NCBI GenBank assembly: GCA_045637145.1
Contig: JAZTYV010000027.1
Coordinates: 13,586 to 77,585, forward strand
DNA length: 64,000 nt
From: Clostridia bacterium
GTDB lineage: Bacteria > Bacillota > Clostridia > UMGS1810
Reading direction: 5' to 3'
The notes beneath the pieces were generated by a model that worked only from the letters and a program-made list of their open reading frames with translations, did no database searches and had not been told where the DNA came from. Every line of letters begins with the position of its first letter. Position 1 is the first letter of the stretch. Position numbers and translations under genes: made by a program. Shown piece by piece: positions 21,057-54,425 of the stretch.

Positions 21057-21057
21057 T

Positions 21058-37460: not shown

Positions 37461-38978
37461 ATGAAAACATTTAAAAAATTACTTGCTCTTACACTTATTT
37501 TTGTTCTTGTAGCATCTTGCTTTGCAGGATGTAAAGATGACAAGAAAAAGGTAGGCAAAGGTGAGTATGATGCTTTTATTTATATGAGTCCCAATCCGTA
37601 TAATCCGGAAATGCCCATATGGAAAGAAGCAGAAAGCAAAACAGGAGTTCGTTTAAACGGTGTTGTATCCGAAGTTGCGTCTGATGTTGCATCAAGCTAT
37701 CAGACAATGCTCGCAGGAAGCAAGCTTCCCGAAGTTATAAGATACAACTATACAGAATTGCAGAAGCTTGCCAGAGACGGTGCAGTTGTACCTCTAAATG
37801 ACCTCATTGATGAGTACGCTCCCAACATCAAGGCATTTTTCGAAAAATACGAAGATGCCAAGGCAGTTGCAACTGCAGAAGACGGCAACATATACATTTT
37901 GCCTTCTATGAGTTCTGAGCTGGAAGCAGCACCTTCCATGGGCTTCTTCATCAGACAGGACTGGCTCGATAAACTCGGTCTTGAAGTTCCCACAAATGTT
38001 GAAGAATTTGAGGAAGTTTTAAGAGCATTCAAAAACGAGGACCCCAACGGCAACGGCAAGAAGGATGAAATCCCTTACTTTGGACGAAGCGGAACCCTTG
38101 AACAGCTCCTCCAGCTCTTTAACGCAAACATGTATCTCATCATGGATGGCGACAAGGTAGTATATTCTCCTACAACAAAGGATTTCAAAAAGGGTATCAA
38201 GACAGTTGCCCGTTGGTATCAGGAAGGTCTCATCGACCCCGAAATCTTTACAAGACAGAATGCCAGAGAGCAGCTTCTTGGCGGAAATACGGGCGGTGTT
38301 ACCTGTGACTGGTTCTCATCCACAGGTGCATTCAACGATACCTACAAGGAAAGCATTCCAGGCTTCAACTTTGTGCCTATGCTTCCTCCCAAAAATACAA
38401 AAGGCAAGGTGCAGTCTTTAGAAAGTGCATATACCATCAATACAGATGCATGGTGCATCACTGCATCTGCAGACGAAGAAGCACAGATAGAGCTCATCAA
38501 GTACTTTGATTTCTGGTACAGTGAAGAGGGTCAGGAGCTTGCCGCTTACGGTGTCGAAGGCGAAAGCTACGAAATAGACAAAAACGGCAACAAGAAGTGG
38601 ACAAAGAAAGCTCTTGAATATCCGGGCGGTCAGCCTGAATTCATGCGTTCAATCGGCGGCGGCGAGCTTCCCACAATCGGCAGCAGCGAAGCCCTCAAGA
38701 GCGCAATGCACAAGGTTTCTCTCAAAGGTTATGAAATGTACGAGTCAATCGTAGTAAAGCGTCCTCCCAAGTTCGCTCATACCGATAAAGAAAATGAAAT
38801 CATTGCTGCAAAATTCTCCAATGTTCAGACAGCATTGGAGGAGCAAGTTCAAAAATGGCTTATAGGCAGAGGCGATGTAGATAAGGACTGGGATTCCTAT
38901 GTTGAAACCTTAAACAGCATGGGTGCAAAGGAACTCACAAAAATTTACAACGCTGCCTATAAAAGAATGTATAAATAA
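37461..38978 (+). CDS. Extracellular solute-binding lipoprotein (LplA-like, large family-1 SBP)
   Basis: It has a lipoprotein signal (LIFVLVASCFAGC). At 505 aa it matches the size of SBPs paired with LplB/LplC-type permeases. A strong SD (AAAGGAGGA) precedes it. Confidence 0.88.
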   Translation: MKTFKKLLALTLIFVLVASCFAGCKDDKKKVGKGEYDAFIYMSPNPYNPEMPIWKEAESKTGVRLNGVVSEVASDVASSYQTMLAGSKLPEVIRYNYTELQKLARDGAVVPLNDLIDEYAPNIKAFFEKYEDAKAVATAEDGNIYILPSMSSELEAAPSMGFFIRQDWLDKLGLEVPTNVEEFEEVLRAFKNEDPNGNGKKDEIPYFGRSGTLEQLLQLFNANMYLIMDGDKVVYSPTTKDFKKGIKTVARWYQEGLIDPEIFTRQNAREQLLGGNTGGVTCDWFSSTGAFNDTYKESIPGFNFVPMLPPKNTKGKVQSLESAYTINTDAWCITASADEEAQIELIKYFDFWYSEEGQELAAYGVEGESYEIDKNGNKKWTKKALEYPGGQPEFMRSIGGGELPTIGSSEALKSAMHKVSLKGYEMYESIVVKRPPKFAHTDKENEIIAAKFSNVQTALEEQVQKWLIGRGDVDKDWDSYVETLNSMGAKELTKIYNAAYKRMYK

Positions 38979-38995: not shown

Positions 38996-40606
38996 ATGAA
39001 ATTAAACAAAGTAATTTCGCTTGCACTTGTATTTGCTATGCTCATCTCTGCTATGTGCTTTACAACAGCAAGCGCAGATGACATTTATACTGTGAGTGAT
39101 ATCACTATTTCTAGTCGTGGATATTGTACAGTTTCTGCCTTGTCAGCAAAACCTGGTGCATATCATGTGGCTTATAGAAGTGGCGATGGTAAACTTGCAG
39201 GTGTTAGATTTGGTACAGAAAACATACAGCTTGATGCAAATTGTAAAGCAAATACAATTTTAAGATATTCTATGGATGTTGAGTTTCTTCATGGAATAAA
39301 CAATACACAAATTCACGCTGTAACTACAGGCGGTACTTTTGCCAGTGAAACAGGAGCTAGTTTAACTGATGGAGCAAAGGGTCAGATAGATGTTGTTCTA
39401 GACCTCAGTGGTGGGTCATTTTGGGCAAATTTCCATGATGACGCCACTAACACAGACACAGTAATCAGACACAAAGGTTATAGTGGCTTAATTAGCAGTA
39501 TTACAAAGGACCCGGCCCCTGTACTTACAGCTGTTGAACTTCAGATGGGTTCTACAGGGTTAAGCACAGCCGATATCCCTCTTTATGAATTAAGCAATGT
39601 TAAAAGATATCAATATGCTGCCGGCGTAACTTTAGCCGACGTTCGGGCACATATAGCAGATGAAAATTTCTTTAATAGGCCTGTTTCTGGCAACCTCAAC
39701 GCTATGGCTAGATACAACAACCACACTGTAACAGGTTCAAATGGTAGCTATGTATCTACCGGTTCCTTTGCTGCATATGATGTTATGAGCAATGCTCCCG
39801 GTCAGGCAATTTTCCTTAACCTTCCTTCAAATGTAGATTTCAACAGTGATAATAAGTATCTTGTGTACAAGTGCTCGTTTAGCTTAAATGATGAATGTGC
39901 AGATAGTATTGAATTAGGTTTAACTTACTCTACAGCAAACAATACGGAAGACCCGGCTAAAAATAATGGCGGCCCCTCAGTTGCAAATCTTGCTACAAAT
40001 GCAATTACAATGCGTAGCGGACACACCTATGACCTCAATGTAATATTTGACTTAGTTAACAAGACATATAACACATACTTAGATGGTCAGCTTATTGGTA
40101 GCGGTGCTGTTAACTCATCTGTTACAACAATGAGAACAATCCGTTTGTGGTACACACACAGAAATCCTTCAGGTGCTAGCTACAACATGCCCTACACAGC
40201 AACATACAAGATTTATCCCGGTACTTCAACATTTACTTTATCTGATGTTGTTGCTGCAGAAGTAGGTCAGGTTGTTACTGGACCTGTTATTTCCGAACTC
40301 TACTGGAACGGTGGCGTTAACGAAGGCGACGAAGAGTACCTCAATTTGGTTACTTATGAGCCAATCCCCGAAGGATACAAGCTCTTCATTGCTGTATACG
40401 ATGAAGCTGATACCGAAGGTAGCGAAACCTTAATCACTGCATTTCCTATCGATAGCACAACCGAGTACACAAACCACAATAATGGTACAACAAAGTACAC
40501 TGCTGCTATTCCCGGTGTTAAGGTTCCCAACGTTAAGTTCTTTATTTGGGATGCAAACTACAATCCTTTAGACGCTGCTCGTACAGTTCGTTATTTCCAC
40601 AAATAA
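38996..40606 (+). CDS. Secreted protein built from the same non-catalytic modules as the C-terminus of the next gene (LamG/jelly-roll-like, inferred)
   Basis: The signal peptide is MKLNKVISLALVFAMLISAMCFTTASA. Three modules align by eye with lyase-1 C-terminal modules: LYELSNVKRYQYAAGVTLADVRAHIADE vs LFEVSNIKQYIYSYGTELATVQGHLASE; HTYDLNVIFDLVNKTYNTYLDGQLIG vs VEYDLKIIVDIGDKTAYSYVDNCLVN; VKFFIWDANYNPL vs VRIFVWDNQISPI. Confidence 0.55.
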   Translation: MKLNKVISLALVFAMLISAMCFTTASADDIYTVSDITISSRGYCTVSALSAKPGAYHVAYRSGDGKLAGVRFGTENIQLDANCKANTILRYSMDVEFLHGINNTQIHAVTTGGTFASETGASLTDGAKGQIDVVLDLSGGSFWANFHDDATNTDTVIRHKGYSGLISSITKDPAPVLTAVELQMGSTGLSTADIPLYELSNVKRYQYAAGVTLADVRAHIADENFFNRPVSGNLNAMARYNNHTVTGSNGSYVSTGSFAAYDVMSNAPGQAIFLNLPSNVDFNSDNKYLVYKCSFSLNDECADSIELGLTYSTANNTEDPAKNNGGPSVANLATNAITMRSGHTYDLNVIFDLVNKTYNTYLDGQLIGSGAVNSSVTTMRTIRLWYTHRNPSGASYNMPYTATYKIYPGTSTFTLSDVVAAEVGQVVTGPVISELYWNGGVNEGDEEYLNLVTYEPIPEGYKLFIAVYDEADTEGSETLITAFPIDSTTEYTNHNNGTTKYTAAIPGVKVPNVKFFIWDANYNPLDAARTVRYFHK

Positions 40607-40632: not shown

Positions 40633-40662
40633 GGGTAATGCAATGGTTTCATTGCATTACCC
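40633..40662 (+). terminator. 12-bp perfect stem-loop after the 536-aa gene (no U-tract)
   Basis: GGGTAATGCAAT (40633-40644), loop GGTTTC, then ATTGCATTACCC (40651-40662). Confidence 0.4.
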
Positions 40663-40876
40663 CGACTGGGGTAATCCTACGAGTTTAACTCATAGACTTT
40701 TGATTAAATTTTTGTTTGTGTTTTTGGTTTGTTGCAAAAAGCTGCAACAAGTCAAAACCATGTGCAAAACACAAAGATTTACCATTGGGTGCAGCTTGCA
40801 AGTAAGGCTTCATCATAAACTGCACACAAAAGATATTGTTTTCAATACATTTTTTACTACACAGGAGCGTGGTTCA

Positions 40877-43800
40877 ATGAAAAAGAAAAGCACATTATTA
40901 CTGGCAGTATTTTTGTTTGTTTTTGCCGTATCCGTTGTCTACCTTGCAGATTGTCCTGCATTGGCAGCCGTTCCCGAGCTTTCGCAAAAGGGCGCTGTTA
41001 TAGAAGCTGAAAGCATGACCTATAGCAGCAATATGACAAAAGCATTTAGCACTTCCGCATCCGGTTGGTATAACCTCAAGGTAAACAACGGACTTAGCGA
41101 CATCAATACTCCTCCTGCATCTACCACCTCAGGAGATATAGAATACGAGTTCAAAGCCACCGAGGATTGCCTCTACATCATATGGGTTAGGGCATATGCA
41201 TCGGGTGCCAGCTCTGACTCCTGCTATGTTGCCATAGACAACTACACCCCCTATGTATCGCAGGCAATTACTACTCACGGAGAGTATATGTGGAAGCGTC
41301 TTGAAGTCAGCATAGAAGCCAAGGCGGGTGAGACCTACAAGTTTAAGTTCCACCGCAGAGAAGGCTCACTTCAGGTAGACCAGTTCATCATTACAGGTAT
41401 CATTGGCTACGAGCCGTCAGGAAACTCCAAGGTGTCGAGTCTTCCCGATACAAACGATATTGCGCTTCCCGATATATACAACGACCCCGCGTACAATCCT
41501 CCTGCAGATGAACACCCCAGAGTTTATTTTACAGATGACGACATCGCAGAGCTTATAGTAAACCTCAACCATTCGTCAAATGCTCCCTTCAAGGAAATTT
41601 TTGACTCCTATGTGGAAGAAACCAATGTAGACATAGGCGCTGAGTATAACTTGACAGCTCTCGACAAAATAGAATGTAAGGCGTACTACTACGCACTCTA
41701 CAAAGACGAAACCGTGGGCAGACAGGCAATAGACCTTGCTCTTCAAACCATGACAGACTGGCCGTTTTTAAGCTATGGTGAACTAAACACCCGTTTAAAC
41801 GGCATGCTCATATCTACATGGTCCGAGGTCTATGACTGGTGCTACGACCTCCTCACCGAATCCGAAAAACAACAGTTCATAAAACGCTCCATGACCAGTG
41901 CATCGGTTATGGAAAACGGCTGGCCCCCCTCCAAGCAGGAGGCAATTACAGGCCATGGAGCCGAAGCCCAGCTTTTAAGAGTCATCATGTCTTTTGCCAT
42001 TGCTGTCTATGACGAAAGACCGGACATATGGCAGTATGTAGGTGGAAGATTCTACGATGAGTTTGTTCCTCCGAGACTCTTCTTCTACAAGGCAGGCATG
42101 CACATTCAGGGCACAAGCTACGGTGTGTACAGAAACATATGGGATCTCCACGCATACAAGCTTATCACAGGCATGGGTGTTCCCGAGCCGTATCCTGCAG
42201 AGGAAGTTGCGGGTATGGATGCAAGCCGTCTCATATACCTAAGAAGACCGGACGGCAACCTCACCTTAGACGGCGACACACCAAGTTTGTATACAGTTCC
42301 CATGACCTACGGTTATGCGGCACAGGCTGCCGTGCTTTTGGCTTCATCTGTAGGCAACGACCCTTACCTTAAGGATGAGTATGTAAGGGCAACCTTTACC
42401 GCAGACAAAGACGGTTTAACCAGAAAACGCGGAGAAGGTGACGAATCAACTATAGTAAATCACCTTATGTTCTCCGACCCTGACCTTGAAAGACAGTCCA
42501 TAGCCAACCTCCCGCTGTCCAAATACTTTGGAAGCCCCATGGGTGTTATGGCGGCAAGAACCGGCTGGGGAGACGGTGTTCAGTCGAATGCTGTCGTTGC
42601 CGAGATGAAGATAGGTGAGTACTATGTAGGCGGACATCAGATGCCCGCTGCAGGACACTTTTCAATCTACTACAAGGGTCCTCTTACCAATCAGGGCGGT
42701 GTGTACGACATCTTCAACTCACCTGCATTCAATCATTACAATCACAAAACCACAGCAAGCAACTGCATACTGGTCTACGACCCCAACGAACCCGCAGAAA
42801 ACTTTATGTGGGGCGAAAATGACGGCGGACAGAAGCTCGACCCTGTAAGCTTAAATGCTGCAAATGGTGGAACCTGGACCCCCGATGAAGAATACCACAG
42901 GGCAGAGGTACAAGGTCACGAAATCGATCCTGCAGACCCTATTGCTCCAGACTATACATATCTAAAAGGTGATATTGCCAAATACTACAGTGACAAAATT
43001 ACAGACTACAAACGCTCCATGATGTTCTTAAATCTCAAGGACTCTGCCGTTCCTGCGGCTATGGTAGTGTTTGACAAATTGTCTGTCAAAGACCCCTCCT
43101 TTAAGAAAACATGGGTACTTCACGGACAGACATCTCCCGTCATAGACGGTGCAAGAACAGTGTGGGGAAGCAGCCCCTATGTCAATTCTCTCGGCGAACG
43201 CTATACCGGCAAGATGGTACACGACATCGTTCTTCCTGACCAGAGCAAGCTTACAAAAACTGTTGTAGGCGGTGAAGAAGAGGGCTGGAACATCATAAAC
43301 GGTGTTAATGTCCCCGGTAACACCCAAAACGGCAAAGACAGAGAGGAAAACACATACAGACTTGAGCTTTCGCCCACAGAAAACAACTCCACCGAGCTTT
43401 TCTTAAATGTAATTCAGGTTACAGATGAGTCCAATGAGGCTTATCTCAATGTAACCAAGGTAGAAAACGACAAGTTCGTAGGCGTACAGCTTGCAGACAG
43501 AGTTGTACTTTTTGCAAAGAGCGGAAACAGAGAGTCCTCGGGCATCGAGTTTACCACCACAGGTACAGGCACACTCAAGTACACCGTGTGCGATGTACAA
43601 AGCGGTACATACTCCGTTACAGCAGCAGGGCAGACTCTTACTGCTGTTGTTACCGAAGAGGGCGGAGTTCTCTCGTTCGAAGCTCCAGCAGGCTCGGTAA
43701 GTGCAGTACGCACTTCATCTCAGGTTCCCGAAACCGAAGTTCAGCCTGTAGAACTTGGAGACAAAGTATCATACTATGTCAAGGTAAATAATCAGCTTGT

Positions 43801-46156
43801 CAATATGCCTGTTGACGCAGAGCTTGCAGACGGCACACTTATGTTTCCCGTTAAAAACCTTGCAGTTAAGATGGGTCTTAACGAGAACACCGAATTCGAA
43901 AGAACAATATACTCTCACGCTTCACAAAAGATAGAAGTGCAGATTACACCTTCCTCCAATATAATCATAGTTGACGGCAAAGAAGTTGCAATGCAAAAGC
44001 CTGCATATGTAAAAGACGGCTATCTCATGGTAGACATCAAAACCTTTGCCGAGGCCTTCAACTTTGTATATCATTGGGATGACTGGTCCGAGACAGCATA
44101 TCTCGTATCCAACCCAAAGCCCGCAAAGGAAGAGCTTGTATATACTGTAAATACTCCTGTTATAACAAATCAGATTTCCAGTATGACAATAGAGGAAAAT
44201 GCAGATAGACCGGGCACCTACAGTGTGTACCACCTTGGAAGCAATCCCGCAATGTACACAGCTTTTGCTCTTGTAGGCGACCCTGTACAGCTCGATTTCA
44301 AGGGAACAGATGCAAAATATCCGTTCTCACGAAAGACAATAGTGCGCTACTCTGCCGAAATAGAGTCTTTTGTGGATTCCACAGTGTTCTATCTGTACAC
44401 CGATTTCTCAGACGGAAACACTGCATGGCGTAATGCAGAAACACAAAAACCTGCCAAAAATCAGAAAATCAAGCTGGATGTTGTGGTAGACTTAAGCAAT
44501 CTGTATGTTCGCTATTACATAGACAATGTATTGATAAAAGCCATGCCCTTTACTGCGGCAACAGACATTACCTCGCTTAGCTTAAACGGTATCCGCGTAC
44601 AGCTTGGCGATGCCAACACCACCACATCGGGTACAAAGCTTTTTGAAGTAAGCAACATAAAGCAGTACATATACTCCTACGGCACAGAGCTTGCCACGGT
44701 TCAGGGGCACCTTGCTTCCGAGCCTACCGTTACTTCTCTTACACCCGTAGCACAGGATTCAAGCAGATGGACAATTTCAAGTGCAGGAAACGGTGTGTGG
44801 AATGTTACAGCAAAGCGCACAGGCTACACCAACGGAGGTTTCTATATTCCGTTTGATGTAAATATGACAGACGGTGTAACATCAGGCTTCTATCGTGTAT
44901 CTGCAACCATTACACCGAAAACCAGTCTCTACGATACTTCAAATGCAGTGTTCAATGCACTCTATACCGTTGATGGCACAAATGCATGGCAGTACTATTT
45001 CAATTCCAACATTCACTCGGGCAGACCAAACTATCTCACCAAATATGCCCCTGTTAAGTTTGACATGTTTGTAGACAAGAGCAACAATATGGTGTACTAC
45101 TACTTAAACGGTCGCCAGGTTGCATCCAACACATATAATGCACAGGCGCAAGGTTCTGAGGTTATATTAAAGAACATGGGCATATATGTTGTGGCATATG
45201 GCATAGAAGCAGGTGATTTGGCTTTCCAGATGAGCAATGTCAAAAAGTATACCTACTCTGCATTGGCAACCAGGCAGAGTGTAATAAATGACATTCTCTC
45301 TGAAACTCAGGGTGTTTCCAAGGCAAGCCTTACCTATACAAAACGAAGCGACCATGTTACATTTACAACTACCGCAGGTGAGGGATTAAAGGTTGTTTCC
45401 GCAGACGGAAACGCCACATTCAACTTCTGGATGAACCTTCCTGAAAGCATAAACTTTGCCTCATCCGATTACAAGTATCTGGTACTGCAAAACACCTTAA
45501 AGCACAATGTACCTGCATCTTCATTAGAGCTTGTTACACAGCTTGGCAAGGATGCCACAGATACCAGAGTCGGCGGTTCCAACATTGCAATGCATCAGGG
45601 CGTTGAGTACGATTTAAAGATTATTGTAGACATCGGAGACAAAACAGCCTACTCATATGTAGACAATTGCCTTGTAAACACAATAGATTTGTCAGGCTTT
45701 ACCGAGCTTAGAAGAATGCTTATCTACCTCGATGAGAGAACAGGTGACGGCATTTCGGCAGGCGAAGTAGATATGACGCTTTTCGATTACAATGCAGTGT
45801 ACTATCCTTTGGATTACACAGGCGGCATAGACGATGTAATTGCCCTGGAAATCGGCACCGACATCGAAGATTTCTATGTAAAGCGTGCTTACTACAAATA
45901 CAACAACGGCTCCCAAAGGTATGATGCATATTTCAATACAAGCATCAACATACCCGAGGACTACAGCGTGTATTTGGTTTCATATACAGTAGATGTTAAC
46001 GGTACGGAAACTTTGATTAATTCCACCCAGCTTAGTGGAGGAAAAGACTTTTCCGTACAACTTCCAAGAGAGTTTGACAGAGTAAGAATATTTGTGTGGG
46101 ACAATCAGATTTCGCCCATAAGCAAATCCTTTGACCTTGCACAATTTGCAAACTGA
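40877..46156 (+). CDS. Giant secreted multi-module protein with heparinase II/III-type (putative polysaccharide lyase) core
   Basis: The ATG at 40877 lies 8 nt after ACAGGAG and gives the signal peptide MKKKSTLLLAVFLFVFAVSVVYLADCPALAA. Approximate module order is as follows.
- A CBM-like beta-sandwich (40990-41398).
- An alpha-toroid plus heparinase II/III-like region (~41490-43520; PADEHPRVYFT, GHGAEAQ, GGHQMPAAGHFSIYYKGPLTNQ).
- A copper-amine-oxidase-N-like module (~43740-44110; DGTLMFPVKNLAVKMGL, DGYLMVDIKTFAEAFNF).
- Three LamG-like modules and a roughly 100-aa terminal module. Confidence 0.7.
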   Translation: MKKKSTLLLAVFLFVFAVSVVYLADCPALAAVPELSQKGAVIEAESMTYSSNMTKAFSTSASGWYNLKVNNGLSDINTPPASTTSGDIEYEFKATEDCLYIIWVRAYASGASSDSCYVAIDNYTPYVSQAITTHGEYMWKRLEVSIEAKAGETYKFKFHRREGSLQVDQFIITGIIGYEPSGNSKVSSLPDTNDIALPDIYNDPAYNPPADEHPRVYFTDDDIAELIVNLNHSSNAPFKEIFDSYVEETNVDIGAEYNLTALDKIECKAYYYALYKDETVGRQAIDLALQTMTDWPFLSYGELNTRLNGMLISTWSEVYDWCYDLLTESEKQQFIKRSMTSASVMENGWPPSKQEAITGHGAEAQLLRVIMSFAIAVYDERPDIWQYVGGRFYDEFVPPRLFFYKAGMHIQGTSYGVYRNIWDLHAYKLITGMGVPEPYPAEEVAGMDASRLIYLRRPDGNLTLDGDTPSLYTVPMTYGYAAQAAVLLASSVGNDPYLKDEYVRATFTADKDGLTRKRGEGDESTIVNHLMFSDPDLERQSIANLPLSKYFGSPMGVMAARTGWGDGVQSNAVVAEMKIGEYYVGGHQMPAAGHFSIYYKGPLTNQGGVYDIFNSPAFNHYNHKTTASNCILVYDPNEPAENFMWGENDGGQKLDPVSLNAANGGTWTPDEEYHRAEVQGHEIDPADPIAPDYTYLKGDIAKYYSDKITDYKRSMMFLNLKDSAVPAAMVVFDKLSVKDPSFKKTWVLHGQTSPVIDGARTVWGSSPYVNSLGERYTGKMVHDIVLPDQSKLTKTVVGGEEEGWNIINGVNVPGNTQNGKDREENTYRLELSPTENNSTELFLNVIQVTDESNEAYLNVTKVENDKFVGVQLADRVVLFAKSGNRESSGIEFTTTGTGTLKYTVCDVQSGTYSVTAAGQTLTAVVTEEGGVLSFEAPAGSVSAVRTSSQVPETEVQPVELGDKVSYYVKVNNQLVNMPVDAELADGTLMFPVKNLAVKMGLNENTEFERTIYSHASQKIEVQITPSSNIIIVDGKEVAMQKPAYVKDGYLMVDIKTFAEAFNFVYHWDDWSETAYLVSNPKPAKEELVYTVNTPVITNQISSMTIEENADRPGTYSVYHLGSNPAMYTAFALVGDPVQLDFKGTDAKYPFSRKTIVRYSAEIESFVDSTVFYLYTDFSDGNTAWRNAETQKPAKNQKIKLDVVVDLSNLYVRYYIDNVLIKAMPFTAATDITSLSLNGIRVQLGDANTTTSGTKLFEVSNIKQYIYSYGTELATVQGHLASEPTVTSLTPVAQDSSRWTISSAGNGVWNVTAKRTGYTNGGFYIPFDVNMTDGVTSGFYRVSATITPKTSLYDTSNAVFNALYTVDGTNAWQYYFNSNIHSGRPNYLTKYAPVKFDMFVDKSNNMVYYYLNGRQVASNTYNAQAQGSEVILKNMGIYVVAYGIEAGDLAFQMSNVKKYTYSALATRQSVINDILSETQGVSKASLTYTKRSDHVTFTTTAGEGLKVVSADGNATFNFWMNLPESINFASSDYKYLVLQNTLKHNVPASSLELVTQLGKDATDTRVGGSNIAMHQGVEYDLKIIVDIGDKTAYSYVDNCLVNTIDLSGFTELRRMLIYLDERTGDGISAGEVDMTLFDYNAVYYPLDYTGGIDDVIALEIGTDIEDFYVKRAYYKYNNGSQRYDAYFNTSINIPEDYSVYLVSYTVDVNGTETLINSTQLSGGKDFSVQLPREFDRVRIFVWDNQISPISKSFDLAQFAN

Positions 46157-46346
46157 CACAATTGTTATTCTTAGGCACACAGGGGAGATGTGCTCGCCTT
46201 GTGCTTAGAGATATTTGTAATAGATTACTGTAATGCAAATTTCTCTTAAATACCCTTTGAAATCTTTATATTTCTACATGGATATAGAGCTTAAATAAAA
46301 AACCAACACACATTGGACAAAACAAATTTAGTATGGGAGTGATACA

Positions 46347-49300
46347 ATGAAAAACAGAAAAATCATTGCGGCAGTATTAGTAATGCTTTCTTTACTAATT
46401 GGAATGACCTTTGTAGGTGCGGCAGACACTGCTACTGCACCCAAGCTTGTTGAAGACCAGATTTTCGAACTAGAAAATGCTTCACATTCGGGTATGACCA
46501 CAAGAAAAGTAAAGAGTATTCATGCCAGCGGCGGTGAATACATTGTGAATGATGCTGCCGGTATCGCAGACAAAAAAGACATCATTGTCGATGACCTGTC
46601 TGTTACCTTCAACCTTGCAAAAGGTGGCGAAATCAGAATGTTCGTAAGACTTCAGGTGCCTATGAACGCTGAAGGCTCCTTCTTCTATCGTTGGGATGAC
46701 GAAGAATGGAAGGATCAGGTTTGCTTTGCAAGCAAAGACTTTCAGTGGATAGAAGTTCCTGCCAAGTTCTTAACTGACGGACAGCACAAGTTCTCTATTG
46801 CCAGAAAGAGTACAGGCATACTCTACGATGCAGTCTATATGACTCGTGACCCCGAGTTTGTACCGGCTGTACCCGAGGGCGTAGAGCCTATTACCGATGC
46901 CGCAAGAGTTATTGCACACTATCAGGAGTCAATTCCTGAGTTCGACTACAGAGGTGGCGTAATAGATATGGAAGACATGACCTACGAAGATGGTATGACT
47001 TTGGTCGAAGATGCAAAGGCATCCGGCAAAACTGCCATGAAGGTCATAATGCCCAACCAGGCGTCAAGTATGTCTGCCCCGAATGCTTCCGAACCCGGTA
47101 CTGTGGAATTTGAATTTACCGCCACAGAAAACTGCGGATACTCAATTTGGATGCGTAGCTTTGCAAAAGACGGCGGTTCCGACTCCTGTTATGTTCAGGT
47201 AGAAGGAAAAACTCAGTATATGCAGATGAACCTTCCTTACCACGGCAGATGGACCTGGAAGCAGGTTGTTGCTCGTTTCGAAGCAAAAGCAGGCGAAACC
47301 TATAAGTTTAAGTTCTATTTCAGAGAAAAGAACTTCCTTATTGACCAGTTCGTCATCACCGGTATCATGGGATACGCTCCCGTCGGTGAACAGCAGACAG
47401 GTATAGAAGCCGAAATCGTTACCGAACTTAAAGAAAACACAGCAGGTGTTTTGGAACAGTTCTACGATATGCCTCCCTATAACCCACCTGCAGGCGTACA
47501 CCCCAGAGTGTACTTTACCAAGGAAGACATTCCCTCTCTTATAGAAAAGCTTAATGACCCAATAAATGCTCCTCTTAAGAAAATATTTGACGGCTATATA
47601 GCAGACCACAGTGGTGCAGGCAGTGCATACAATGGTGCTGCTCAGCTTGAAAAGATGGAAGCCAAGGCATACTACTATGCACTCTTTGGCGATAAGGAAG
47701 TTGGTCGCGAAGCCATCAACCTTTCTCTTGAGTCTATGAGAACCTGGCCCTTCCTTTCAGATATTGAGGGTAACACCAGAACAAACGGTTGGTTCATAGC
47801 AACTTGGTCCAAGGTTTACGACTGGTGCTATGACCTCCTTACCGAAGAGGAAAAAGCATTCTTTATCACCCGTTGCGAACAGTCCGCAAGTGTAATGGAA
47901 GTTGGTTGGCCTCCTGTTAAACAGCCCGAAATGCTGTGGGGCCACGGCGCGGAAGCACAGGTTCACAGAGATTTATTGTGCTTTGCTATTGCAACCTACG
48001 ATGAAAGACCCGACATATGGAACAACGTTGCAGGTGAAATTTATCAATTATCCGTTCCTGCAAGAAAGTTCATGCATCAGGGTGGATTGAATCTTGCCGG
48101 TGTATCCTACGGTACCTACCGTTACATCTGGGAGTGCCATGCATACCTTCTCTTAACTGCCATGGGACTTCCCGAGCCCTGGCCCGGTGAAGACGTAGCT
48201 TGGGCTTTGAGAAGCCACTCCATATACTTCAGAAGACCCGACGGTACTTGGTTTATGAATGGCGACACACCAAACCTTTACAATGTACCTATGTCCTACA
48301 GTTACGGTCAGCAGGCTGCAACACTTCTTGCTGCAGTTATATCCGATGATCCATACCTTATGGACCAGTACTACAGAATAACCAACATTGCAGATAAGGA
48401 AGGCTATGAGCATCAGCGTGCGGAAAAAGACGAGCTCACCCTTACCGATGCACTCATATTCTTTGACCCAAGCCTCATTCCCAAGTCCATATCCAACTTG
48501 CCTCAGTCTATGTATGTTCCGAGTCCTTCGGGCATGATGCTTGCAAGAACAGGCTGGGACGATGGCGTACAGTCCAATGTTGCAGTTGCATTTATGAAGA
48601 TGGAAGAATACTATGTAGGCGGTCACCAGACACCTGCGGCTGGTCACTTCTCCATCTACTACAAAGGACCTCTTACAAACCAGAGTGGTATCTACGACAT
48701 TATGTTCTCACCCGGATTCCAGCACTACAACCATCACTCTATTGCAAGTAACTGTATCTTGGTGTACGACCCCAACGAGGATCCTGCAAACTTCCAATAC
48801 ACACCAAACGATGGTGGTCAGAAGTGGGCACCTGATGATAGCGGTATCCCCGGTATCGATCTCAGTCCATCTTTAGATACACCGGATTTCGAAGGTGATT
48901 GGTGGCTGGATGACGCCTTCAAGAGAACCACTACCGAAGGTGTAGAAATCGATCCCAAGAACCCCATCACGCCCGACTACTCATACCTAAAGGGTGACAT
49001 TACCAAATGGTATAGCGACAAAGTTAAGGATTATCACCGTTCTATGATCTTCTTAGACCTTAAGGACGACACAATCCCTGCCGCTATGGTAGTGTTCGAT
49101 AAATTGTCCGTAAAGAACCCAACTCACAAAAAGACTTGGGTACTCCACGGTCAGACTGTTCCCCAAATAATTGGTGGCAGAACAATCTGGGGCTCCAGCC
49201 CCTTCAAGAACTCTGTTGGTGAAGAATACACAGGTTCGATGGTTCACGACATCATTCTCCCTGCACCTTCCGACCTCAACAAAGAGGTAATAGGCAGCGA

Positions 49301-51020
49301 GGAAGAAGGATGGAACATCGTTAACGGTGTTAATGTTCCTAACAATACTGCCGGTGGTGCAGCACTGGAAGAAAACACCTACAGACTTGAGCTTTCACCT
49401 AAAGCAAACAACGAAACAGAGTTGTTCCTAAATGTAATTCAGGTTACAGACAGAAGTAACAAAGCATACCATGCAGTAACCAAGGTAGAAAACACAACCC
49501 ATGTCGGCGTTAAGATTTCCGACAGAGTAGTGCTCTTCTCCAAGGATGCCAAGAGGGTAGGCACAAGCTTTGAAGTAAATGCTATTGGTTCCGGCAGTGT
49601 TAAGTACACCATCTGTGATATGCAGGCAGGTGTATGGAATGTTACCAACGGTGGCAAGACCTTCGAAGTTGTAGTAACCGAAGAAGGCGGCGTGCTTGCA
49701 TTCGATGGCGTAATGGGTAATGTTAAGGCGGTGCCCGCAGGCAAAGGCGCTCCCGTAGTTGAGGAAGTTCCATTAGTGCTTTCCGACGACAGAGCTCTTA
49801 GAGTAAAGATTGGTAATTCCTTTGCTTATATGCCCGTTGAGCCCGACATAGTAAATGGCTCATTAGTGGTTCCTATCGAGTACATTGCACCCAAGATGAA
49901 CCTAAAGCGCCAAGCGGACTTTATGAAGGAAGTATTTGTAGAAGACAGACAGAAGATTACCGCTGAGGTAAGACCTGACGCCACTACATTCCTTGTAAAT
50001 GGCGAAGTTAGAGATCTTAATGTTCCTACCTATATGAAAGACGGCTACCTTATGGTAGAGCTCAGAACTTTTGCAGAAGCATTCAACTATCTTGTATACT
50101 GGGATAACTTTGCAAAGACTGCAAACCTCGTATCTAACCCCGTTATCGTTAAGGAAGATGATAAGAACTATGCAAAAGTTGTAAATGTAATAACAGATGA
50201 AATAGGTGTATCCGACCCGACAACTGGAGGTGGTAGATTTGCAGTTGACGGCGACTTAGAAACACTTTGGTCTGCAAATGCTGCAGAAGGCCCTGTAGGC
50301 TTCATAATGGAACTCGAAGAGGAAACCCTACTTGAAAATATTGAAATAGTATTTAACCCCAATTCATTTAGAACACCGTACTTCGACGTATACGTATCAC
50401 AAGACGGCGTTAACTTTACACACATCTTAAATGCTATCGGTTCCCCCGATGCCAACGGCTTTGACTACGAAACATTTGCCTTCGATCCACAGATTGAAGT
50501 ATATGCAAAATATGTTCAGTATCTTGCAAATGGTTCCGATAAGTCCAAGTGGAATGGTGTAAAGGAAATTAGATTCAAAGTCGGCGAACCCATTAAGAGA
50601 TGGGAAACTACAGAAAATCATGCAGTAATTTCTAAAGTACAAGGCGACGGTGGGGAGACAGATCCCGCAAATACACCTCCCAACATTGCCGACAACAACG
50701 GCAGAACAATTTGGGCGGCACAAGGTGTAGGTAGATATGTAACCTTTGCCCTTGAAGATGAAACCGACCTCGTTGGTGTTGAAATAATATTCAACAAGAA
50801 CTCCAACAGAATTCCTAAGTTCGAAATCCATGTTTCTGACGATGGTGAAAACTTCCGCAAGATTTACGGTTCAGCAGGTAATCCCGAAGCTGGACAGTTC
50901 GAGTGGGAATCCTTCAACTTTGGTAACCCGGTATCGGCGAAGTATGTTCGCTACGTTGCTATGGGTTCAAACTTAAGTGCTTGGAACGGCGTCGTTGAAG
51001 TTCGTTTCCTAAAAAAATAA
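46347..51020 (+). CDS. Second giant secreted heparinase II/III-type protein (paralog) with two discoidin (F5/8 type C) modules
   Basis: The signal peptide is MKNRKIIAAVLVMLSLLIGMTFVGA. Approximate module order is as follows.
- Two CBM-like modules (~46458-46850 and 46954-47363).
- A core alignable with the previous gene (~47470-49560).
- A copper-amine-oxidase-N-like module (~49760-50140).
- Two discoidin-like modules (FAVDGDLETLWSA...WNGVKEIRF; IADNNGRTIWAAQG...WNGVVEVRF). Confidence 0.7.
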   Translation: MKNRKIIAAVLVMLSLLIGMTFVGAADTATAPKLVEDQIFELENASHSGMTTRKVKSIHASGGEYIVNDAAGIADKKDIIVDDLSVTFNLAKGGEIRMFVRLQVPMNAEGSFFYRWDDEEWKDQVCFASKDFQWIEVPAKFLTDGQHKFSIARKSTGILYDAVYMTRDPEFVPAVPEGVEPITDAARVIAHYQESIPEFDYRGGVIDMEDMTYEDGMTLVEDAKASGKTAMKVIMPNQASSMSAPNASEPGTVEFEFTATENCGYSIWMRSFAKDGGSDSCYVQVEGKTQYMQMNLPYHGRWTWKQVVARFEAKAGETYKFKFYFREKNFLIDQFVITGIMGYAPVGEQQTGIEAEIVTELKENTAGVLEQFYDMPPYNPPAGVHPRVYFTKEDIPSLIEKLNDPINAPLKKIFDGYIADHSGAGSAYNGAAQLEKMEAKAYYYALFGDKEVGREAINLSLESMRTWPFLSDIEGNTRTNGWFIATWSKVYDWCYDLLTEEEKAFFITRCEQSASVMEVGWPPVKQPEMLWGHGAEAQVHRDLLCFAIATYDERPDIWNNVAGEIYQLSVPARKFMHQGGLNLAGVSYGTYRYIWECHAYLLLTAMGLPEPWPGEDVAWALRSHSIYFRRPDGTWFMNGDTPNLYNVPMSYSYGQQAATLLAAVISDDPYLMDQYYRITNIADKEGYEHQRAEKDELTLTDALIFFDPSLIPKSISNLPQSMYVPSPSGMMLARTGWDDGVQSNVAVAFMKMEEYYVGGHQTPAAGHFSIYYKGPLTNQSGIYDIMFSPGFQHYNHHSIASNCILVYDPNEDPANFQYTPNDGGQKWAPDDSGIPGIDLSPSLDTPDFEGDWWLDDAFKRTTTEGVEIDPKNPITPDYSYLKGDITKWYSDKVKDYHRSMIFLDLKDDTIPAAMVVFDKLSVKNPTHKKTWVLHGQTVPQIIGGRTIWGSSPFKNSVGEEYTGSMVHDIILPAPSDLNKEVIGSEEEGWNIVNGVNVPNNTAGGAALEENTYRLELSPKANNETELFLNVIQVTDRSNKAYHAVTKVENTTHVGVKISDRVVLFSKDAKRVGTSFEVNAIGSGSVKYTICDMQAGVWNVTNGGKTFEVVVTEEGGVLAFDGVMGNVKAVPAGKGAPVVEEVPLVLSDDRALRVKIGNSFAYMPVEPDIVNGSLVVPIEYIAPKMNLKRQADFMKEVFVEDRQKITAEVRPDATTFLVNGEVRDLNVPTYMKDGYLMVELRTFAEAFNYLVYWDNFAKTANLVSNPVIVKEDDKNYAKVVNVITDEIGVSDPTTGGGRFAVDGDLETLWSANAAEGPVGFIMELEEETLLENIEIVFNPNSFRTPYFDVYVSQDGVNFTHILNAIGSPDANGFDYETFAFDPQIEVYAKYVQYLANGSDKSKWNGVKEIRFKVGEPIKRWETTENHAVISKVQGDGGETDPANTPPNIADNNGRTIWAAQGVGRYVTFALEDETDLVGVEIIFNKNSNRIPKFEIHVSDDGENFRKIYGSAGNPEAGQFEWESFNFGNPVSAKYVRYVAMGSNLSAWNGVVEVRFLKK

Positions 51021-51045: not shown

Positions 51046-52725
51046 ATGCAAAAAAAATTCTTTTTGATATCCGCTTTGGTCGTTGCATTGCTTTGCATGG
51101 TAGTTTGTGCAAGCGCAGACCAGCAGATATGCGAAAAAATCAGCTATTATGATGCAGACGGCAACATCCTGACCTCGTATACCGAGGGTGAAGTTACAGC
51201 AGTTGCCTCTTGCACCAATACCACTTCAAAAGCTATAAAACCCGTCCTTGTAGTTACCAGCTACAGGGACGGACAGCAAAACGGTTTTTGGTATGCCAGT
51301 GCAGAGTCTTCTATTGCAAAGAACGAAGAAGGCTTAGTAGAAGTAACCTTTACACCTGCAGCAGGCGATGTTATCAAGGCTACACTGATTGATAGCCTCC
51401 AAAACCTCAATCCTTACCTTGCAACAGCTAAGATGCTAAACAACACCACAAACTTAGATGGTGTGTTTGTAGACGGCGTATTCTTACCCGGATTTACAAA
51501 CGATGAAGATGCCTATGAATATAAGGTTACAGGTGCTGGAAAAGTTACAGCACTTGCCGAAGATGGCTCCTCCGCTGTTACCATTACAGAGCCCGAGTCG
51601 CTCCCTGGATATGCAAATGTTAATGTATTGTCCGCTTTTGGTGACCAAAGAGATGTTTCCATACTTATGTATAAAGACTTAGAAGATCTCTACACCTTAA
51701 AGGGTATCAACTATATTGTCAATGGTACCGAGTATTCAATGCCCGATTTCAACCACGACAACTTTGACCCCACCAAGGGAGCATATATCTACTCATTGTC
51801 ACTTCCCGACAACACACTTTTTGCAGAGCTTGTACCAATTCCTACATTTGAAGGTGCAGACATAAAGGTAGAAGTTGAAGATACTGACCACATGTACAGA
51901 TACTTCGATGGACTTCTTTATCGTTACCACGGTTTCCACAGAACCTACATCAACTCATTTGGTAAAGCAAGAGGAACATTTGACAACATCGTTCCTATAA
52001 AGAATGAAGAGGTTATAGTTACCATTACTGTTTCCTACGGTGATCTTTCCAAAAAGTACAGAATCACAATGGGCGGAAGACAGCCAAGACTTACAAGCTA
52101 TAACTTCAATCCCGATGCAGTTTCCACTGCAACACCTGTATTCGTAGGTGGTGCGGCTGTAAACAACGACAACGGTACCACATATTCAATCGACCGTTGG
52201 TGGGCTTTTACAAACGTTTCTGAAAACCTCGTTGGTGCAAGTATGTTTGTAATGCCTGTTAGAGATACTCAGTCAACATCCTGGTGGGGACAGAACACCG
52301 AAGGTGTATACTTTGACTTTACTGCAGATACACCCGGTACAATCTACATGATCCACGATACAGCTAATCTTACCGCATCAAATATTAACCCTGCATATAT
52401 CGCTGATGGTTGGGAATACATAGACCGCTCCGATCTTCAAACCTACACAACAGGCGGAAACTTCGCAGGACTACCCGTAACATTCAATGATTTTGGCGAT
52501 GACCGTCTAAACATTTGTATGTATTCATTTAGTGATGACGTAGCTTCTAGATATGGAGATAGTGCATATACGCCGGGAGGAAGAACCCTATTCGATAGCT
52601 ACTTCAAGAGAGATTTCCAAGCTGGCGAAGTAATAGAAATTCACAACACAGGCTCATGGGCAGGTACAGACATGAATTCCAAGCACTCCCTTACCTACCT
52701 TATAGTTTGGGATATTGAAGAATAA
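51046..52725 (+). CDS. Secreted protein: ~100-aa N-module, two cadherin-like beta-sandwich modules, unassigned ~215-aa C-terminal domain
   Basis: The signal peptide is MQKKFFLISALVVALLCMVVCASA. The cadherin-like pattern is LDGVFVDGVFLPGFTNDEDAYEYKV...AVTITEP. The C-terminal domain is homologous to ORF 60417-61109 (VYFDFTADTPGTIYMIHD / IYEFTISKPATVYIIPYA; LTYLIVWDIEE / AIFIVWDEVQE). Confidence 0.5.
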   Translation: MQKKFFLISALVVALLCMVVCASADQQICEKISYYDADGNILTSYTEGEVTAVASCTNTTSKAIKPVLVVTSYRDGQQNGFWYASAESSIAKNEEGLVEVTFTPAAGDVIKATLIDSLQNLNPYLATAKMLNNTTNLDGVFVDGVFLPGFTNDEDAYEYKVTGAGKVTALAEDGSSAVTITEPESLPGYANVNVLSAFGDQRDVSILMYKDLEDLYTLKGINYIVNGTEYSMPDFNHDNFDPTKGAYIYSLSLPDNTLFAELVPIPTFEGADIKVEVEDTDHMYRYFDGLLYRYHGFHRTYINSFGKARGTFDNIVPIKNEEVIVTITVSYGDLSKKYRITMGGRQPRLTSYNFNPDAVSTATPVFVGGAAVNNDNGTTYSIDRWWAFTNVSENLVGASMFVMPVRDTQSTSWWGQNTEGVYFDFTADTPGTIYMIHDTANLTASNINPAYIADGWEYIDRSDLQTYTTGGNFAGLPVTFNDFGDDRLNICMYSFSDDVASRYGDSAYTPGGRTLFDSYFKRDFQAGEVIEIHNTGSWAGTDMNSKHSLTYLIVWDIEE

Positions 52726-52740
52726 GGAGGATAGGTGACT

Positions 52741-54405
52741 ATGAAAAAACTAATATCAATTTTAATTGCATCTTTGCTTATGCTTCAGTGTGTGGCTTTT
52801 GCCGATTATTCACTGGGAACTTCAGAGGATGAAGTCGTTATTTCAGGTCAGGCCAATCCTTTTAAAATGGTATCCTTTGTACTTTTAAATAATGAAGCAT
52901 TCACAGCAGATTCTATAGACGGCATAGTGGATGAATACATTGCCGACATAGAAGATGGAAATATTCTTACAACAGAAAAGATTTTCTACTTTGATGCTGT
53001 AAGAGCAGACGCAAACGGCGATTGGCAAGTAATTGTCGATATGGCCGGCATTGAAACCAAGGACCTCATTCTCTTCGAAAGTGAAGACAAGTACGAACCC
53101 GTATTCTTCGCTTCTGTAGACTACAGAGCAGGTATCCTTTCAAACCTCATTGAAAAAGCATTTGTAGAGGATGACAACGCATCATTAAAGAACGCTATCA
53201 CAACCGATATTTCATATATCGCAGATAGCTGGGATCTCTACGGTAAGCTTACAAACAAATTGTTTGTTGCAAACTTTGTAGATGACACCATTAAGACCTT
53301 TGATCCCATAACAGCAGGCTCTGCAGAGCTCGCAGTGTTAAAGGCTAAGATGGACAAGGCAATCCTCCTTCAGGCAATTAGCGAAGGTAAGATGTCCAAC
53401 TTCGACAAGGCTTTCTATTTTGACTATGATACTTCCCTTAAGGCTACAATGTCATCTGCCGGTCAGACAAAGACACTTGAACTCTTAAAGGGTGGCGACT
53501 ACAGCGTAGAGGATGACTACATCGCTGCTGCACAAGAAGTATTAAAGCTCCAGAATTTCAACTACAACACCAACCAAAATGGTAACAACCTTGTAGAAGT
53601 TTTAGAAACCTTAGGTCTTGACCTTGATGACTTTGACGACCTTGGCAATAGCGATCAGGCTAAGGCTGCAAAGAGTCTTGCTAAGAAGAAGAGCGAAGAC
53701 TACGAAGAAGCTCAGGATAACCTTGACGATATCGTAGAAGATATTTTATATGGTAAAGGCGGTTCCAAAGGCGGCTTTAGTGATGTTTCATCACTTCCTT
53801 TCACCCCCAATCCTAAAGAAAGCATCTCCGACGAAAACATTCAGGGTCAGAAGTACATCTACACAGATTCTCACCTTGCTCCTTGGAGTGCAGATGCTGT
53901 AGTTTACCTCTCCGATAAAAGCATTGTTGCAGGCTATGAAGATGGTTCCTTCAAGCCCAACAACTCCATCACAAGAGCAGAATTCACAAAACTCGTTGTA
54001 GAAGCCTTCTATGGCATCACAGCGTACGAATACACAACAGCATTCTCCGATGTACCTCAGAATGCTTGGTATGCTCCTTATGTAAACAAAGCATACGACA
54101 ATGGTATCGTGGCAGGTACTTCTGCTGGCAAATTCAACCCCAACGATACAATCACAAGAGAAGATATGGCAGTTATCCTATACAACGCTGCTATTAAGCA
54201 CGGTTTAATTGCTACAGCTTCTCCCAACAAATTATTTGCAGATGAAGCTTTAATTAGCGCATATGCAAAAGATGCAGTTTACACACTTAAGGCACTTAAC
54301 ATTGTAAGTGGTGTAGGCACAGGCGAATTTGAGCCCAAGTCCAACGCTACAAGAGCAGCTGCTTGCCAGATGCTATACTCACTTATGGTTAAGACATCCA
54401 AATAA
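52741..54405 (+). CDS. Secreted protein with three C-terminal SLH (S-layer homology) repeats
   Basis: The signal peptide is MKKLISILIASLLMLQCVAFA. The SLH repeats lie at ~53860-54390: YTDSHLAPWSADAVVYLSDKSIVAGYEDGSFKPNNSITRAEFTKLV; FSDVPQNAWYAPYVNKAYDNGIVAGTSAGKFNPNDTITREDMAVIL; FADEALISAYAKDAVYTLKALNIVSGVGTGEFEPKSNATRAAACQML. The N-terminal ~370 aa are unassigned. The ORF-track GTG at 52735 is the alternative start. Confidence 0.8.
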   Translation: MKKLISILIASLLMLQCVAFADYSLGTSEDEVVISGQANPFKMVSFVLLNNEAFTADSIDGIVDEYIADIEDGNILTTEKIFYFDAVRADANGDWQVIVDMAGIETKDLILFESEDKYEPVFFASVDYRAGILSNLIEKAFVEDDNASLKNAITTDISYIADSWDLYGKLTNKLFVANFVDDTIKTFDPITAGSAELAVLKAKMDKAILLQAISEGKMSNFDKAFYFDYDTSLKATMSSAGQTKTLELLKGGDYSVEDDYIAAAQEVLKLQNFNYNTNQNGNNLVEVLETLGLDLDDFDDLGNSDQAKAAKSLAKKKSEDYEEAQDNLDDIVEDILYGKGGSKGGFSDVSSLPFTPNPKESISDENIQGQKYIYTDSHLAPWSADAVVYLSDKSIVAGYEDGSFKPNNSITRAEFTKLVVEAFYGITAYEYTTAFSDVPQNAWYAPYVNKAYDNGIVAGTSAGKFNPNDTITREDMAVILYNAAIKHGLIATASPNKLFADEALISAYAKDAVYTLKALNIVSGVGTGEFEPKSNATRAAACQMLYSLMVKTSK

Positions 54406-54425
54406 GAACAGGAGGATAAAATAAT

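Follow-up and report, generated by a model that had tools for sequence, protein, structure and literature searches.

A tandem pair of predicted PL21 lyases with a replaced zinc site in a recurrent Clostridia gene cassette

Two adjacent giant genes, g1 and g2, lie in a 64,000-nucleotide stretch of a Clostridia bacterium assembly (GCA_045637145.1, contig JAZTYV010000027.1, positions 13,586 to 77,585; hereafter the window, from whose first letter all positions are counted). The reading that we favour, with moderate confidence, is that they encode secreted, multi-modular, endo-acting polysaccharide lyases of CAZy family PL21 at the centre of a conserved Gram-positive utilisation cassette; it is drawn from observed homology, residue conservation, module folds and synteny. 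Both proteins keep the catalytic residues of heparinase II and have lost every zinc-ligand position. PL21 enzymes have been characterised only in Bacteroidota, and all of them act on heparin, heparan sulfate or acharan sulfate (PMC8056909, PMC12088678). The cassette reveals a large uncharacterised Gram-positive branch of the family, with accessory modules of its own, SLH-domain partners and neither sulfatases nor GH88. The general kind of enzyme is known; what sets the pair apart as new is its Gram-positive cassette, its accessory modules and the dismantling of the zinc site.

Results and Discussion

Assignment to family PL21 and catalytic residues

A phmmer search against all PDB sequences matched only heparinase II of Pedobacter heparinus (HepB, a PL21 enzyme; 2FUQ, 3E80; E=4e-111). 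Residues 209-941 of g1 aligned with chain residues 21-745 of 749, spanning the alpha/alpha-toroid, the central beta domain and HepII_C, and the likeness of g1 and g2 to HepB extends end to end over ~730 residues and all three domains at about 35-38% identity. Among NCBIfam models, HepB (NF045571) gave the sole strong match, with 508 bits for g1 and 448 bits for g2 over model positions 42-773/774, and the Pfam HepII_C domain was detected in both proteins (E about 1e-17 each). Membership of PL12, PL15 or PL17 was rejected, as neither protein matched Hepar_II_III_C (PF07940) at E<=0.01 and the PDB matches were heparinase II chains only. Because of the full-length structural-database alignment, the exclusive HepB match, the HepII_C domain and the lack of PF07940, we place g1 and g2 in PL21 on sequence grounds. 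The original prediction had considered the lyase family unreadable from the sequence and had allowed both for a core without similarity to heparinase II/III-type domains and for a well-studied family in a standard locus. The cores instead align with heparinase II over their whole length and the family can be read as PL21; the robust family assignment stands, and the standard locus was not found. The curated equivalog cut-off of the HepB model is 600 bits, and since both proteins score below it they are, by this measure, too distant from characterised PL21 enzymes for automatic transfer of function. The family itself is large, with 806 representative clusters at E<=1e-30.

Alignments placed His360, Glu363, Tyr415 and His587 of g1, and His533, Glu536, Tyr588 and His760 of g2, at His202, Glu205, Tyr257 and His406 of heparinase II, which are listed as its catalytic residues and carboxylate neutraliser (PMC12088678) and whose importance is backed by mutagenesis of the PL21 enzyme PCHepII (PMC10656541). 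The same His/Glu/Tyr/His set is kept in nearly all of about 255 relatives. The motifs GHGAEAQ, SYGVYRN and GGHQ, proposed beforehand as holding candidate catalytic His and Tyr residues, indeed contain the equivalents of the His/Glu pair, the Tyr and the second His, respectively.

Loss of the zinc site

The zinc ligands of heparinase II, which we take to be His408, Asp425 and His451, fit the conservation seen across the family and the equivalent site of human DS-epimerase 1 (DS-epi1). The metal reportedly supports a loop that makes up one wall of the substrate cleft, and the zinc is said to have been described as structural in the 2006 work of Shaya and colleagues. In g1 the alignment shows Asn405 changed to Gly, His408 to Met, Asp410 to Ala, Asp425 to Gln and His451 to Ser; g2 has Gly, Thr762, Ala764, Gln779 and Ser801 at these positions. 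All ligand positions are thus replaced in both proteins, and since the site bracing the catalytic-His loop appears to have been swapped for non-liganding residues, g1 and g2 would be metal-independent there, with one wall of the substrate cleft remodelled.

The H / D-or-E / H ligand pattern is kept in >90% of the relatives compared (120 word-indexed homologues, ~96 matches in fetched loci and 150 library representatives). The site is characteristic of PL21 without being a formal part of the family's definition. Only one further protein carries the full zinc-less signature, the 1258-aa NCBI-derived P0001, whose core is 66% identical to that of g1. It shares with g1 the N-terminal (N) module and Cu_amine_oxidN1 domain described below, and differs in having a discoidin domain in place of the C-terminal R repeats. 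A neighbour-joining tree gave ((g1, P0001), g2), and the sister proteins P0002 and P0003 retain the zinc site. The three zinc-less cores share 61-66% identity and keep most family-invariant positions intact; those positions conserved in at least 85% of the family that are changed in this clade lie nearly all within g1 586-606 and at 628. Two unrelated library representatives also depart from the ligand pattern: P0338 has P/N/A/S at the zinc-ligand positions, and P0098 has F/A/R with the last His retained, a partial loss. The metal site has therefore been lost more than once. With the full signature shared by P0001 and rare independent losses elsewhere, the zinc-less variant, as judged from these alignments, is rare but not unique.

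A recurrent two-lyase cassette

PL21 loci were located by an alignment-based genome scan of GTDB representatives, to which the species of the window does not belong. Among the loci fetched around homologues, a conserved gene order recurs: an AraC regulator, two permeases, a binding protein, a protein of ~650-680 aa, a first lyase (PL21-A), a second lyase (PL21-B), a homologue of window open reading frame (ORF) 51046, an SLH protein and an SLH protein of ~916 aa. This cassette is found in L085 (ENA ERZ28614804), L004 (CAKSIW01, a metagenome-assembled genome (MAG) from Hadza gut) and L022; L006 has a modified form of it, and L007, L009 and L011 have parts. Its core of regulator, importer and lyase is also common to Paenibacillus and Cohnella loci.

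The window has the same gene order, and g2 is the positional counterpart of PL21-B, with identical architecture and 40% identity over the full length. The situation of g1 is less simple. It stands in position A and bears the R repeats typical of position-A lyases, whereas its core and Cu_amine_oxidN1 domain are g2-like: the core is 61% identical to that of g2 as against 33-38% to position-A lyases, which have ~1200 aa, a single R repeat (three in g1) and no Cu_amine_oxidN1 domain. This combination implies, on sequence comparison, that in the lineage of the window a B-type copy took over the A position, or was fused into it, at an early date. The lyases of the other cassettes keep their zinc ligands, unlike g1 and g2, and the window locus has three genes beyond those of the other cassettes, for a beta-helix-like protein, a BNR protein and a GDSL esterase. 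The differences from HepB are wider. In addition to the five substitutions and the HepB scores below cut-off, g1 and g2 carry 800-1000 extra residues of accessory modules, and they belong to a Gram-positive ABC/SLH cassette, whereas HepB belongs to a Bacteroidota Sus-type locus with sulfatases and GH88.

Other loci hold more lyase genes. At 5752-17596 of L083, one metagenomic contig, a PL21 gene follows an SLH pair and is flanked by two giant genes (1207 and 1643 aa; DSE-like_N + Hepar_II_III_C), which makes an array of three lyases from two different heparinase-fold families. Several PL21 genes, four or five and separate from one another, occur in single Clostridia MAGs, namely JAAZFB01 (L007, L009, L010, L029, L075), DVOF01 (L013, L014, L017, L024) and CABUKE01 (L012, L016, L021, L026), a strong expansion compared with the single genes of Bacteroidota.

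The usual downstream enzymes of lyase pathways are missing. Pfam scans of the window ORFs found no GH88, GH105 or KduI/KduD families, as had been noted from the sequence. They found no sulfatase families either, and a sulfatase-motif scan of the window was negative. Five small ORFs fell outside the Pfam scan; four are housekeeping genes with annotated equivalents in the syntenic relative L086 (see below), and the fifth, ORF 21-830, is unannotated. No sulfatase, GH88/GH105, GH89 or Kdu gene was found in the window or within 10 kb of the cassette-type relatives. Neighbour censuses covered the leading 25 Pfam families in 10 kb on each side. Neither sulfatases nor GH88 were among the leading families of the 85 neighbour proteins of Clostridia loci, which instead included GFO/IDH/MocA oxidoreductases, xylose-isomerase-like TIM barrels and further Cu_amine_oxidN1 proteins; the census of Paenibacillaceae loci contained five SGSH-type sulfatases and eight further heparinase II/III-like proteins. 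By motif scan, sulfatases occur in non-cassette loci (such as L059 and L060) and in Bacteroidota loci. Behind the L022 cassette lie genes for a 2-hydroxyacid dehydrogenase and a GH78 rhamnosidase. Sulfatases, GH88 and amino-sugar or Kdu genes, by which a heparan-sulfate utilisation locus is recognised, were thus found neither in the window nor among the leading families of the Clostridia neighbours. The absence of downstream partners had been seen as unusual for a lyase locus, but neither it nor the tandem pair is peculiar to the window: L085, L004, L022 and L006 have the same two-PL21 cassette, likewise free of GH88 and sulfatase genes.

Proposed function, substrate and alternatives

From these observations we infer activity, localisation and transport as follows. 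Once exported, g1 and g2 would bind their polymer through CBM6/35-like, discoidin (CBM32-type) and ConA-like modules and would cut a 4-linked uronic-acid polysaccharide by beta-elimination. Glu363/536 would neutralise the carboxylate, and Tyr415/588 and His360/533 with His587/760 would serve as base and acid. The predicted products, delta-4,5-unsaturated oligosaccharides, would be taken up by the ABC importer of the cassette under AraC control, with the SLH proteins and the 51046-type protein as putative wall-bound partners. If the enzymes are active, they would offer gut Clostridia a route to attack heparan-like or other acidic glycans, would bring new carbohydrate-binding modules, and would put to a natural test whether the heparinase II / DS-epimerase fold can do without its conserved metal site. 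Multi-modular lyases in Clostridia are in themselves little surprise; the substrate and the dispensability of the metal site are the main questions.

The substrate is the weakest link. We tentatively propose an unsulfated or low-sulfated glycan of the heparosan/heparan type (GlcNAc-alpha1,4-uronate), and consider a different acidic glycan somewhat less likely. A heparan-type substrate is favoured by the PL8 lyase and GH20 genes that adjoin the relative P0025, by the SGSH-type sulfatases in Paenibacillus PL21 loci, by the known activities of the family, by the retained equivalent of His202, by the discoidin modules and by the gut origin of the relatives. Were the substrate heparan sulfate, the pair would be an ordinary extension of a known family.

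Several observations weigh against the proposed function or its substrate. No characterised PL21 enzyme of Gram-positive origin came up in literature searches. Both proteins miss the HepB cut-off, all their zinc-ligand positions are replaced, and the resulting change of the cleft wall does not favour a heparan-type glycan. Neither the window nor the surroundings of the cassette-type relatives contain the sulfatases or unsaturated-uronate enzymes mentioned above, soil Paenibacillus have the regulator, importer and lyase core as well, and the O-acyl esterase in the window and the GH78 gene beside one related cassette misfit heparan sulfate. To these are added published results on the metal site, discussed below.

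Much of this evidence would also be accommodated if fold and chemistry were unchanged and the zinc-less clade, or the whole Clostridia cassette type, cleaved an acidic polymer other than a glycosaminoglycan. Candidates are an O-acetylated bacterial capsule or exopolysaccharide and a plant or algal glucuronan- or rhamnose-containing glycan, with processing that does without GH88 or Kdu enzymes. The clade-specific changes in the cleft-wall loop point in this direction, as do the sub-threshold HepB scores, the lack of sulfatase and GH88 in cassette-type loci, the N modules that the GDSL esterase of the locus shares with the lyases, the rhamnosidase and 2-hydroxyacid dehydrogenase flanking the L022 cassette, and the occurrence of the core genes in soil Paenibacillus. 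We nevertheless consider such a substrate rather unlikely: heparin, heparan sulfate or acharan sulfate is the substrate of every PL21 enzyme characterised, the residue corresponding to His202, which is tied to iduronate handling, is retained, discoidin/CBM32-type modules and the gut origin of the relatives fit host glycans, and the esterase and the GH78 gene each occur in one locus only. It is tempting to speculate further that the cassette is a Gram-positive cell-surface counterpart of the Bacteroidota polysaccharide-utilisation locus, built around a zinc-independent PL21 enzyme with a new specificity outside heparin and heparan sulfate, for example for an O-acylated microbial or dietary acidic glycan; the SLH proteins would hold the lyases at the wall, possibly docked via Cu_amine_oxidN1, and the products would be handled by enzymes other than GH88, GH105 or Kdu, a role for which the beta-helix-like and BNR proteins, cytoplasmic and encoded next to the importer, are candidates. 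Taken as a whole, this picture seems improbable to us.

Loss of the metal site could also have abolished or changed catalysis, in which case the proteins would bind glycan at the surface without catalysis or would act like C5-epimerases, as in the related DS-epimerase fold. The manganese site of human DS-epi1 is equivalent to the zinc site near heparinase II's active site, with a liganding His in the loop of the catalytic His, two positions beyond it; mutation of the metal ligands abolishes DS-epi1 activity, and small active-site changes have been argued to be able to switch the fold between lyase and epimerase (PMC8006597). EDTA inactivates PCHepII (PMC10656541). These results, together with the replacement of every ligand position in g1 and g2, speak for altered catalysis. 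Set against them are the four catalytic residues and most family-invariant positions, intact in three members as diverged as g1, g2 and P0001, an intactness that is hard to explain without retained catalysis and argues for it despite the loss of the metal site. The independent ligand losses in P0338 and P0098 and the reportedly structural role of the zinc add to this, and we regard altered catalysis as very unlikely. Lyase activity at the centre of the cassette is accordingly still our preferred reading of the pair.

An old gene pair

g1 and g2 had been described as tandem paralogues with differing accessory modules, and this was substantiated by BLASTP, which aligned g1 31-1100 with g2 195-1286 at 54% identity across 1094 aa (E=0); the cores on their own are 61% identical. 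All seven identical runs quoted originally (EAKAGETYKFKF, VYDWCYDLLTE, YDERPDIW, PAAGHFSIYYKGPLTNQ, PAAMVVFDKLSVK, KKTWVLHGQT and TELFLNVIQVTD) are present in both proteins and collinear. Across the aligned part the DNA is 60% identical, identical residues share their third codon position in only 53% of cases, and the highest identity in any 50-codon window is <=76%. We therefore interpret the pair as an old duplication with both copies kept under purifying selection, neither a recent copy nor an assembly artefact; recent gene conversion between the two was ruled out by the same window values.

The g1 ORF as delimited mechanically (40643..46156, + strand) opens 234 nt upstream of a better start at 40877, which we consider correct because the product then begins with MKKKSTLLL, of signal-peptide type, and a ribosome-binding site, AGGAG, stands 9 nt upstream. 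A signal peptide can be recognised in each translation, and both proteins are predicted to be exported. The overlong ORF is the sole argument for an assembly or annotation artefact, or for one copy being a decaying pseudogene, an explanation that is extremely improbable and effectively refuted already by gene and synteny evidence: both frames are open across 4.7-5.3 kb, protein sequence is conserved at 60% DNA identity, the public representative library contains each protein in this form (P0244, P0245), and orthologous two-lyase cassettes occur elsewhere.

Table 1. Coordinates of g1, g2, their parts and neighbouring genes in the window
Feature	Position	Strand	Residues or size	Basis and remarks
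g1	40877..46156	+	1759 aa	ORF listing and translation
g1 signal peptide	40877..40966	+	aa 1-30	Putative cleavage after ALA; read from translation
g1 N module	40964..41476	+	aa 30-200	CBM6/CBM35-like beta-sandwich (predicted); jackhmmer, AlphaFold2, Foldseek
g1 PL21 catalytic core	41501..43699	+	aa 209-941	Equivalent to full-length heparinase II; phmmer, NCBIfam HepB, Pfam HepII_C
g1 catalytic residues	41954..42637	+	His360, Glu363, Tyr415, His587	41954-41956, 41963-41965, 42119-42121, 42635-42637; alignments
g1 remodelled metal-site segment	42632..42760	+	aa 586-628	Alignments
g1 Cu_amine_oxidN1	43781..44101	+	aa 969-1075	Pfam E=5e-14
g1 three R repeats	44159..45856	+	aa 1095-1285, about 1290-1480, about 1485-1660	jackhmmer
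g1 T module	45857..46153	+	aa 1661-1759	Common to C-terminus of ORF 38996; BLASTP E=4e-7
g2	46347..51020	+	1557 aa	ORF listing
g2 N modules N1, N2	46434..47426	+	aa 30-188, aa 194-360	jackhmmer E=7e-33 and 5e-53
g2 PL21 core	47487..49727	+	aa 381-1127	NCBIfam HepB, 448 bits
g2 Cu_amine_oxidN1	49818..50120	+	aa 1158-1258	Pfam E=1.3e-12
g2 two F5/8 type C domains (discoidin, CBM32-type)	50214..51017	+		Pfam PF00754 E=3.6e-24, two stretches
AraC-family regulator	29872..32085	-	737 aa	Pfam; 37% identical to L085 counterpart; matches in Paenibacillus loci
ABC importer	35306..38978	+		Permeases 35306-36268 and 36284-37162, solute-binding lipoprotein 37461-38978; Pfam
ORF 38996	38996..40606	+	536 aa	Secreted, signal peptide; two R repeats and T module
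ORF 51046	51046..52725	+	559 aa	Secreted; homologues right after second lyase in L022, L004, L085, L006
Two SLH-domain cell-wall proteins	52735..57176	+	556 aa, 916 aa	Pfam SLH
GDSL/SGNH esterase	57199..60387	+	1062 aa	Secreted; two N modules; Pfam, jackhmmer

Accessory modules

From the N-terminus, g1 consists of a signal peptide, one N module, the PL21 core, Cu_amine_oxidN1, three R repeats and a small terminal T module; g2 consists of a signal peptide, two N modules, the core, Cu_amine_oxidN1 and two discoidin domains. Iterative profile searches found the N-module family once in g1, twice in g2 and twice in the GDSL esterase of the locus, and in one or two copies in about 25 of the 120 PL21 homologues. 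It has no Pfam match (E<=10) and no PDB sequence match, in which it differs from known CBM35/CBM6 modules. An AlphaFold2 model of the g1 module, built from a 20-sequence alignment, is confident (pLDDT 91.4), and Foldseek matched it to CBM35/CBM6 structures (2W47, 2WZ8, 5FUI among them; E about 1e-6 to 1e-5, target-normalised TM 0.65-0.74). Uronates or unsaturated uronates are ligands of some CBM35 modules, and one of the matches is a uronate-binding CBM35 solved with unsaturated galacturonate. The model and its matches support a CBM6/35-like fold and so give a more specific form to the "CBM-like" modules, one in g1 and two in g2, first noted from the sequence.

The copper-amine-oxidase-N-like module placed after the core in both genes and the two discoidin modules at the end of g2, likewise expected from the sequence, were recovered by Pfam: PF07833 scores 52.6 bits in g1 and 48 bits in g2 (cut-off 24.2), and PF00754 scores 85.7 bits in g2 (cut-off 28.2). 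The discoidin region is 54% identical to its counterpart in L004.

The C-terminal 675 aa of g1 found no homologue in the word-indexed database search, and the R repeats have no Pfam match (E<=10). Within the sequences analysed, jackhmmer located R repeats twice in the upstream ORF 38996 and once at the end of PL21 proteins of ~1200 aa (P0006-P0008, P0011, P0013 and others). The AlphaFold2 model of the repeat is of medium confidence (pLDDT 76.5). All its Foldseek matches are lectin-type jelly-rolls, including the trans-sialidase lectin domain, botulinum Hc/NTNH, legume lectin, pentraxin, PL7/PL18 and CBM4/66, with TM values of only 0.35-0.47; given these values, a ConA/LamG-like nature is plausible at the level of fold class only. 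Of the three LamG-like modules and small terminal module predicted for g1, the repeats and the terminal module are real, and the LamG likeness is weak.

Genes around the lyases

The window runs from the AraC regulator, on the opposite strand, through ORFs 32255 and 33817, the two permeases, the solute-binding lipoprotein and ORF 38996 to g1 and g2, followed by ORF 51046, the SLH genes 52735 and 54426, the GDSL esterase gene 57199 and ORF 60417. The importer has counterparts of 50-64% identity in L085, L004 and Paenibacillus loci, and the SLH proteins have counterparts in L004, L006, L007, L011, L022 and L085; a PDB sequence search with ORF 54426 gave nothing significant. ORF 51046 had no usable Pfam match (E<=10) and no significant PDB sequence match. 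Its N-terminus is homologous to residues 809-1062 of the GDSL esterase, for which no counterpart was found in the related cassettes. ORF 38996, without a usable Pfam match (E<=10), is a free-standing version of the g1 C-terminus and fills the slot held in relatives by the unannotated ~650-680-aa protein, which in L004 has faint similarity to the g1 repeats.

ORFs 32255 and 33817 (window 32255-35121) lie between regulator and importer and are absent from related cassettes. The former encodes a cytoplasmic, beta-helix-like protein of 521 aa without a signal peptide, for which Pfam, NCBIfam and PDB sequences gave no match. The product of the latter, also without a signal peptide, is a BNR (sialidase/GH93-like) propeller, as is that of ORF 23946 (23946-25109, - strand); the BNR protein matched sialidase/GH93 propellers weakly among PDB sequences. 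Both 32255 and 33817 are candidates for the intracellular processing of imported oligosaccharides. A separate operon-like group at 25372-29710 encodes a GntR/FCD regulator, a sugar-acid dehydratase of the enolase superfamily, an M24 peptidase-like fragment (212 aa, the C-terminal half of the family only, overlapping the next ORF), a DHDPS-family aldolase and a Zn-dependent dehydrogenase. None of these genes reached an NCBIfam equivalog cut-off, nor did the esterase, the binding protein or the regulator, and a sialic-acid reading of the BNR, DHDPS and GDSL genes was set aside as nothing attains a curated cut-off.

An Rfam scan of the window found no family, and a promoter/terminator scan did not rise above shuffled background, so that the operon boundaries are not fixed. 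Directly 3' of the stop of ORF 38996, and inside the spurious 5' extension of the g1 ORF, positions 40632-40668 form a perfect 13-bp hairpin (GGGTAATGCAATG / gttt / CATTGCATTACCC). It has no T-run behind it and could be a processing or stabilising element or a tail-less terminator.

Host genome

Housekeeping and sporulation genes in the window include those for CotJB and Der, dnaG, sigA and pta-ackA. Its Der protein has relatives at 93-95% identity and, at 82-84%, matches in metagenome assemblies labelled 'Clostridia bacterium' or 'Ruminococcaceae bacterium'. The closest relative found (L086; GCA_054281415.1, JAZPVV010000031.1; Der 95%) is syntenic with window 7974-23895 from dnaG to pgi. After pgi it has no glycan loci, and a Zn_peptidase_2 gene stands where the window has an AraC-like gene followed by the glycan loci; judged by this comparison, all of the 23-61 kb glycan region resembles accessory genome and may be confined to the strain or species. 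Gut assemblies (Hadza, human and chicken) contain the nearest PL21 loci. Because of the sporulation genes, the Der relatives and this gut origin, we take the host to be an uncultured, spore-forming lineage of Clostridia that is probably gut-associated.

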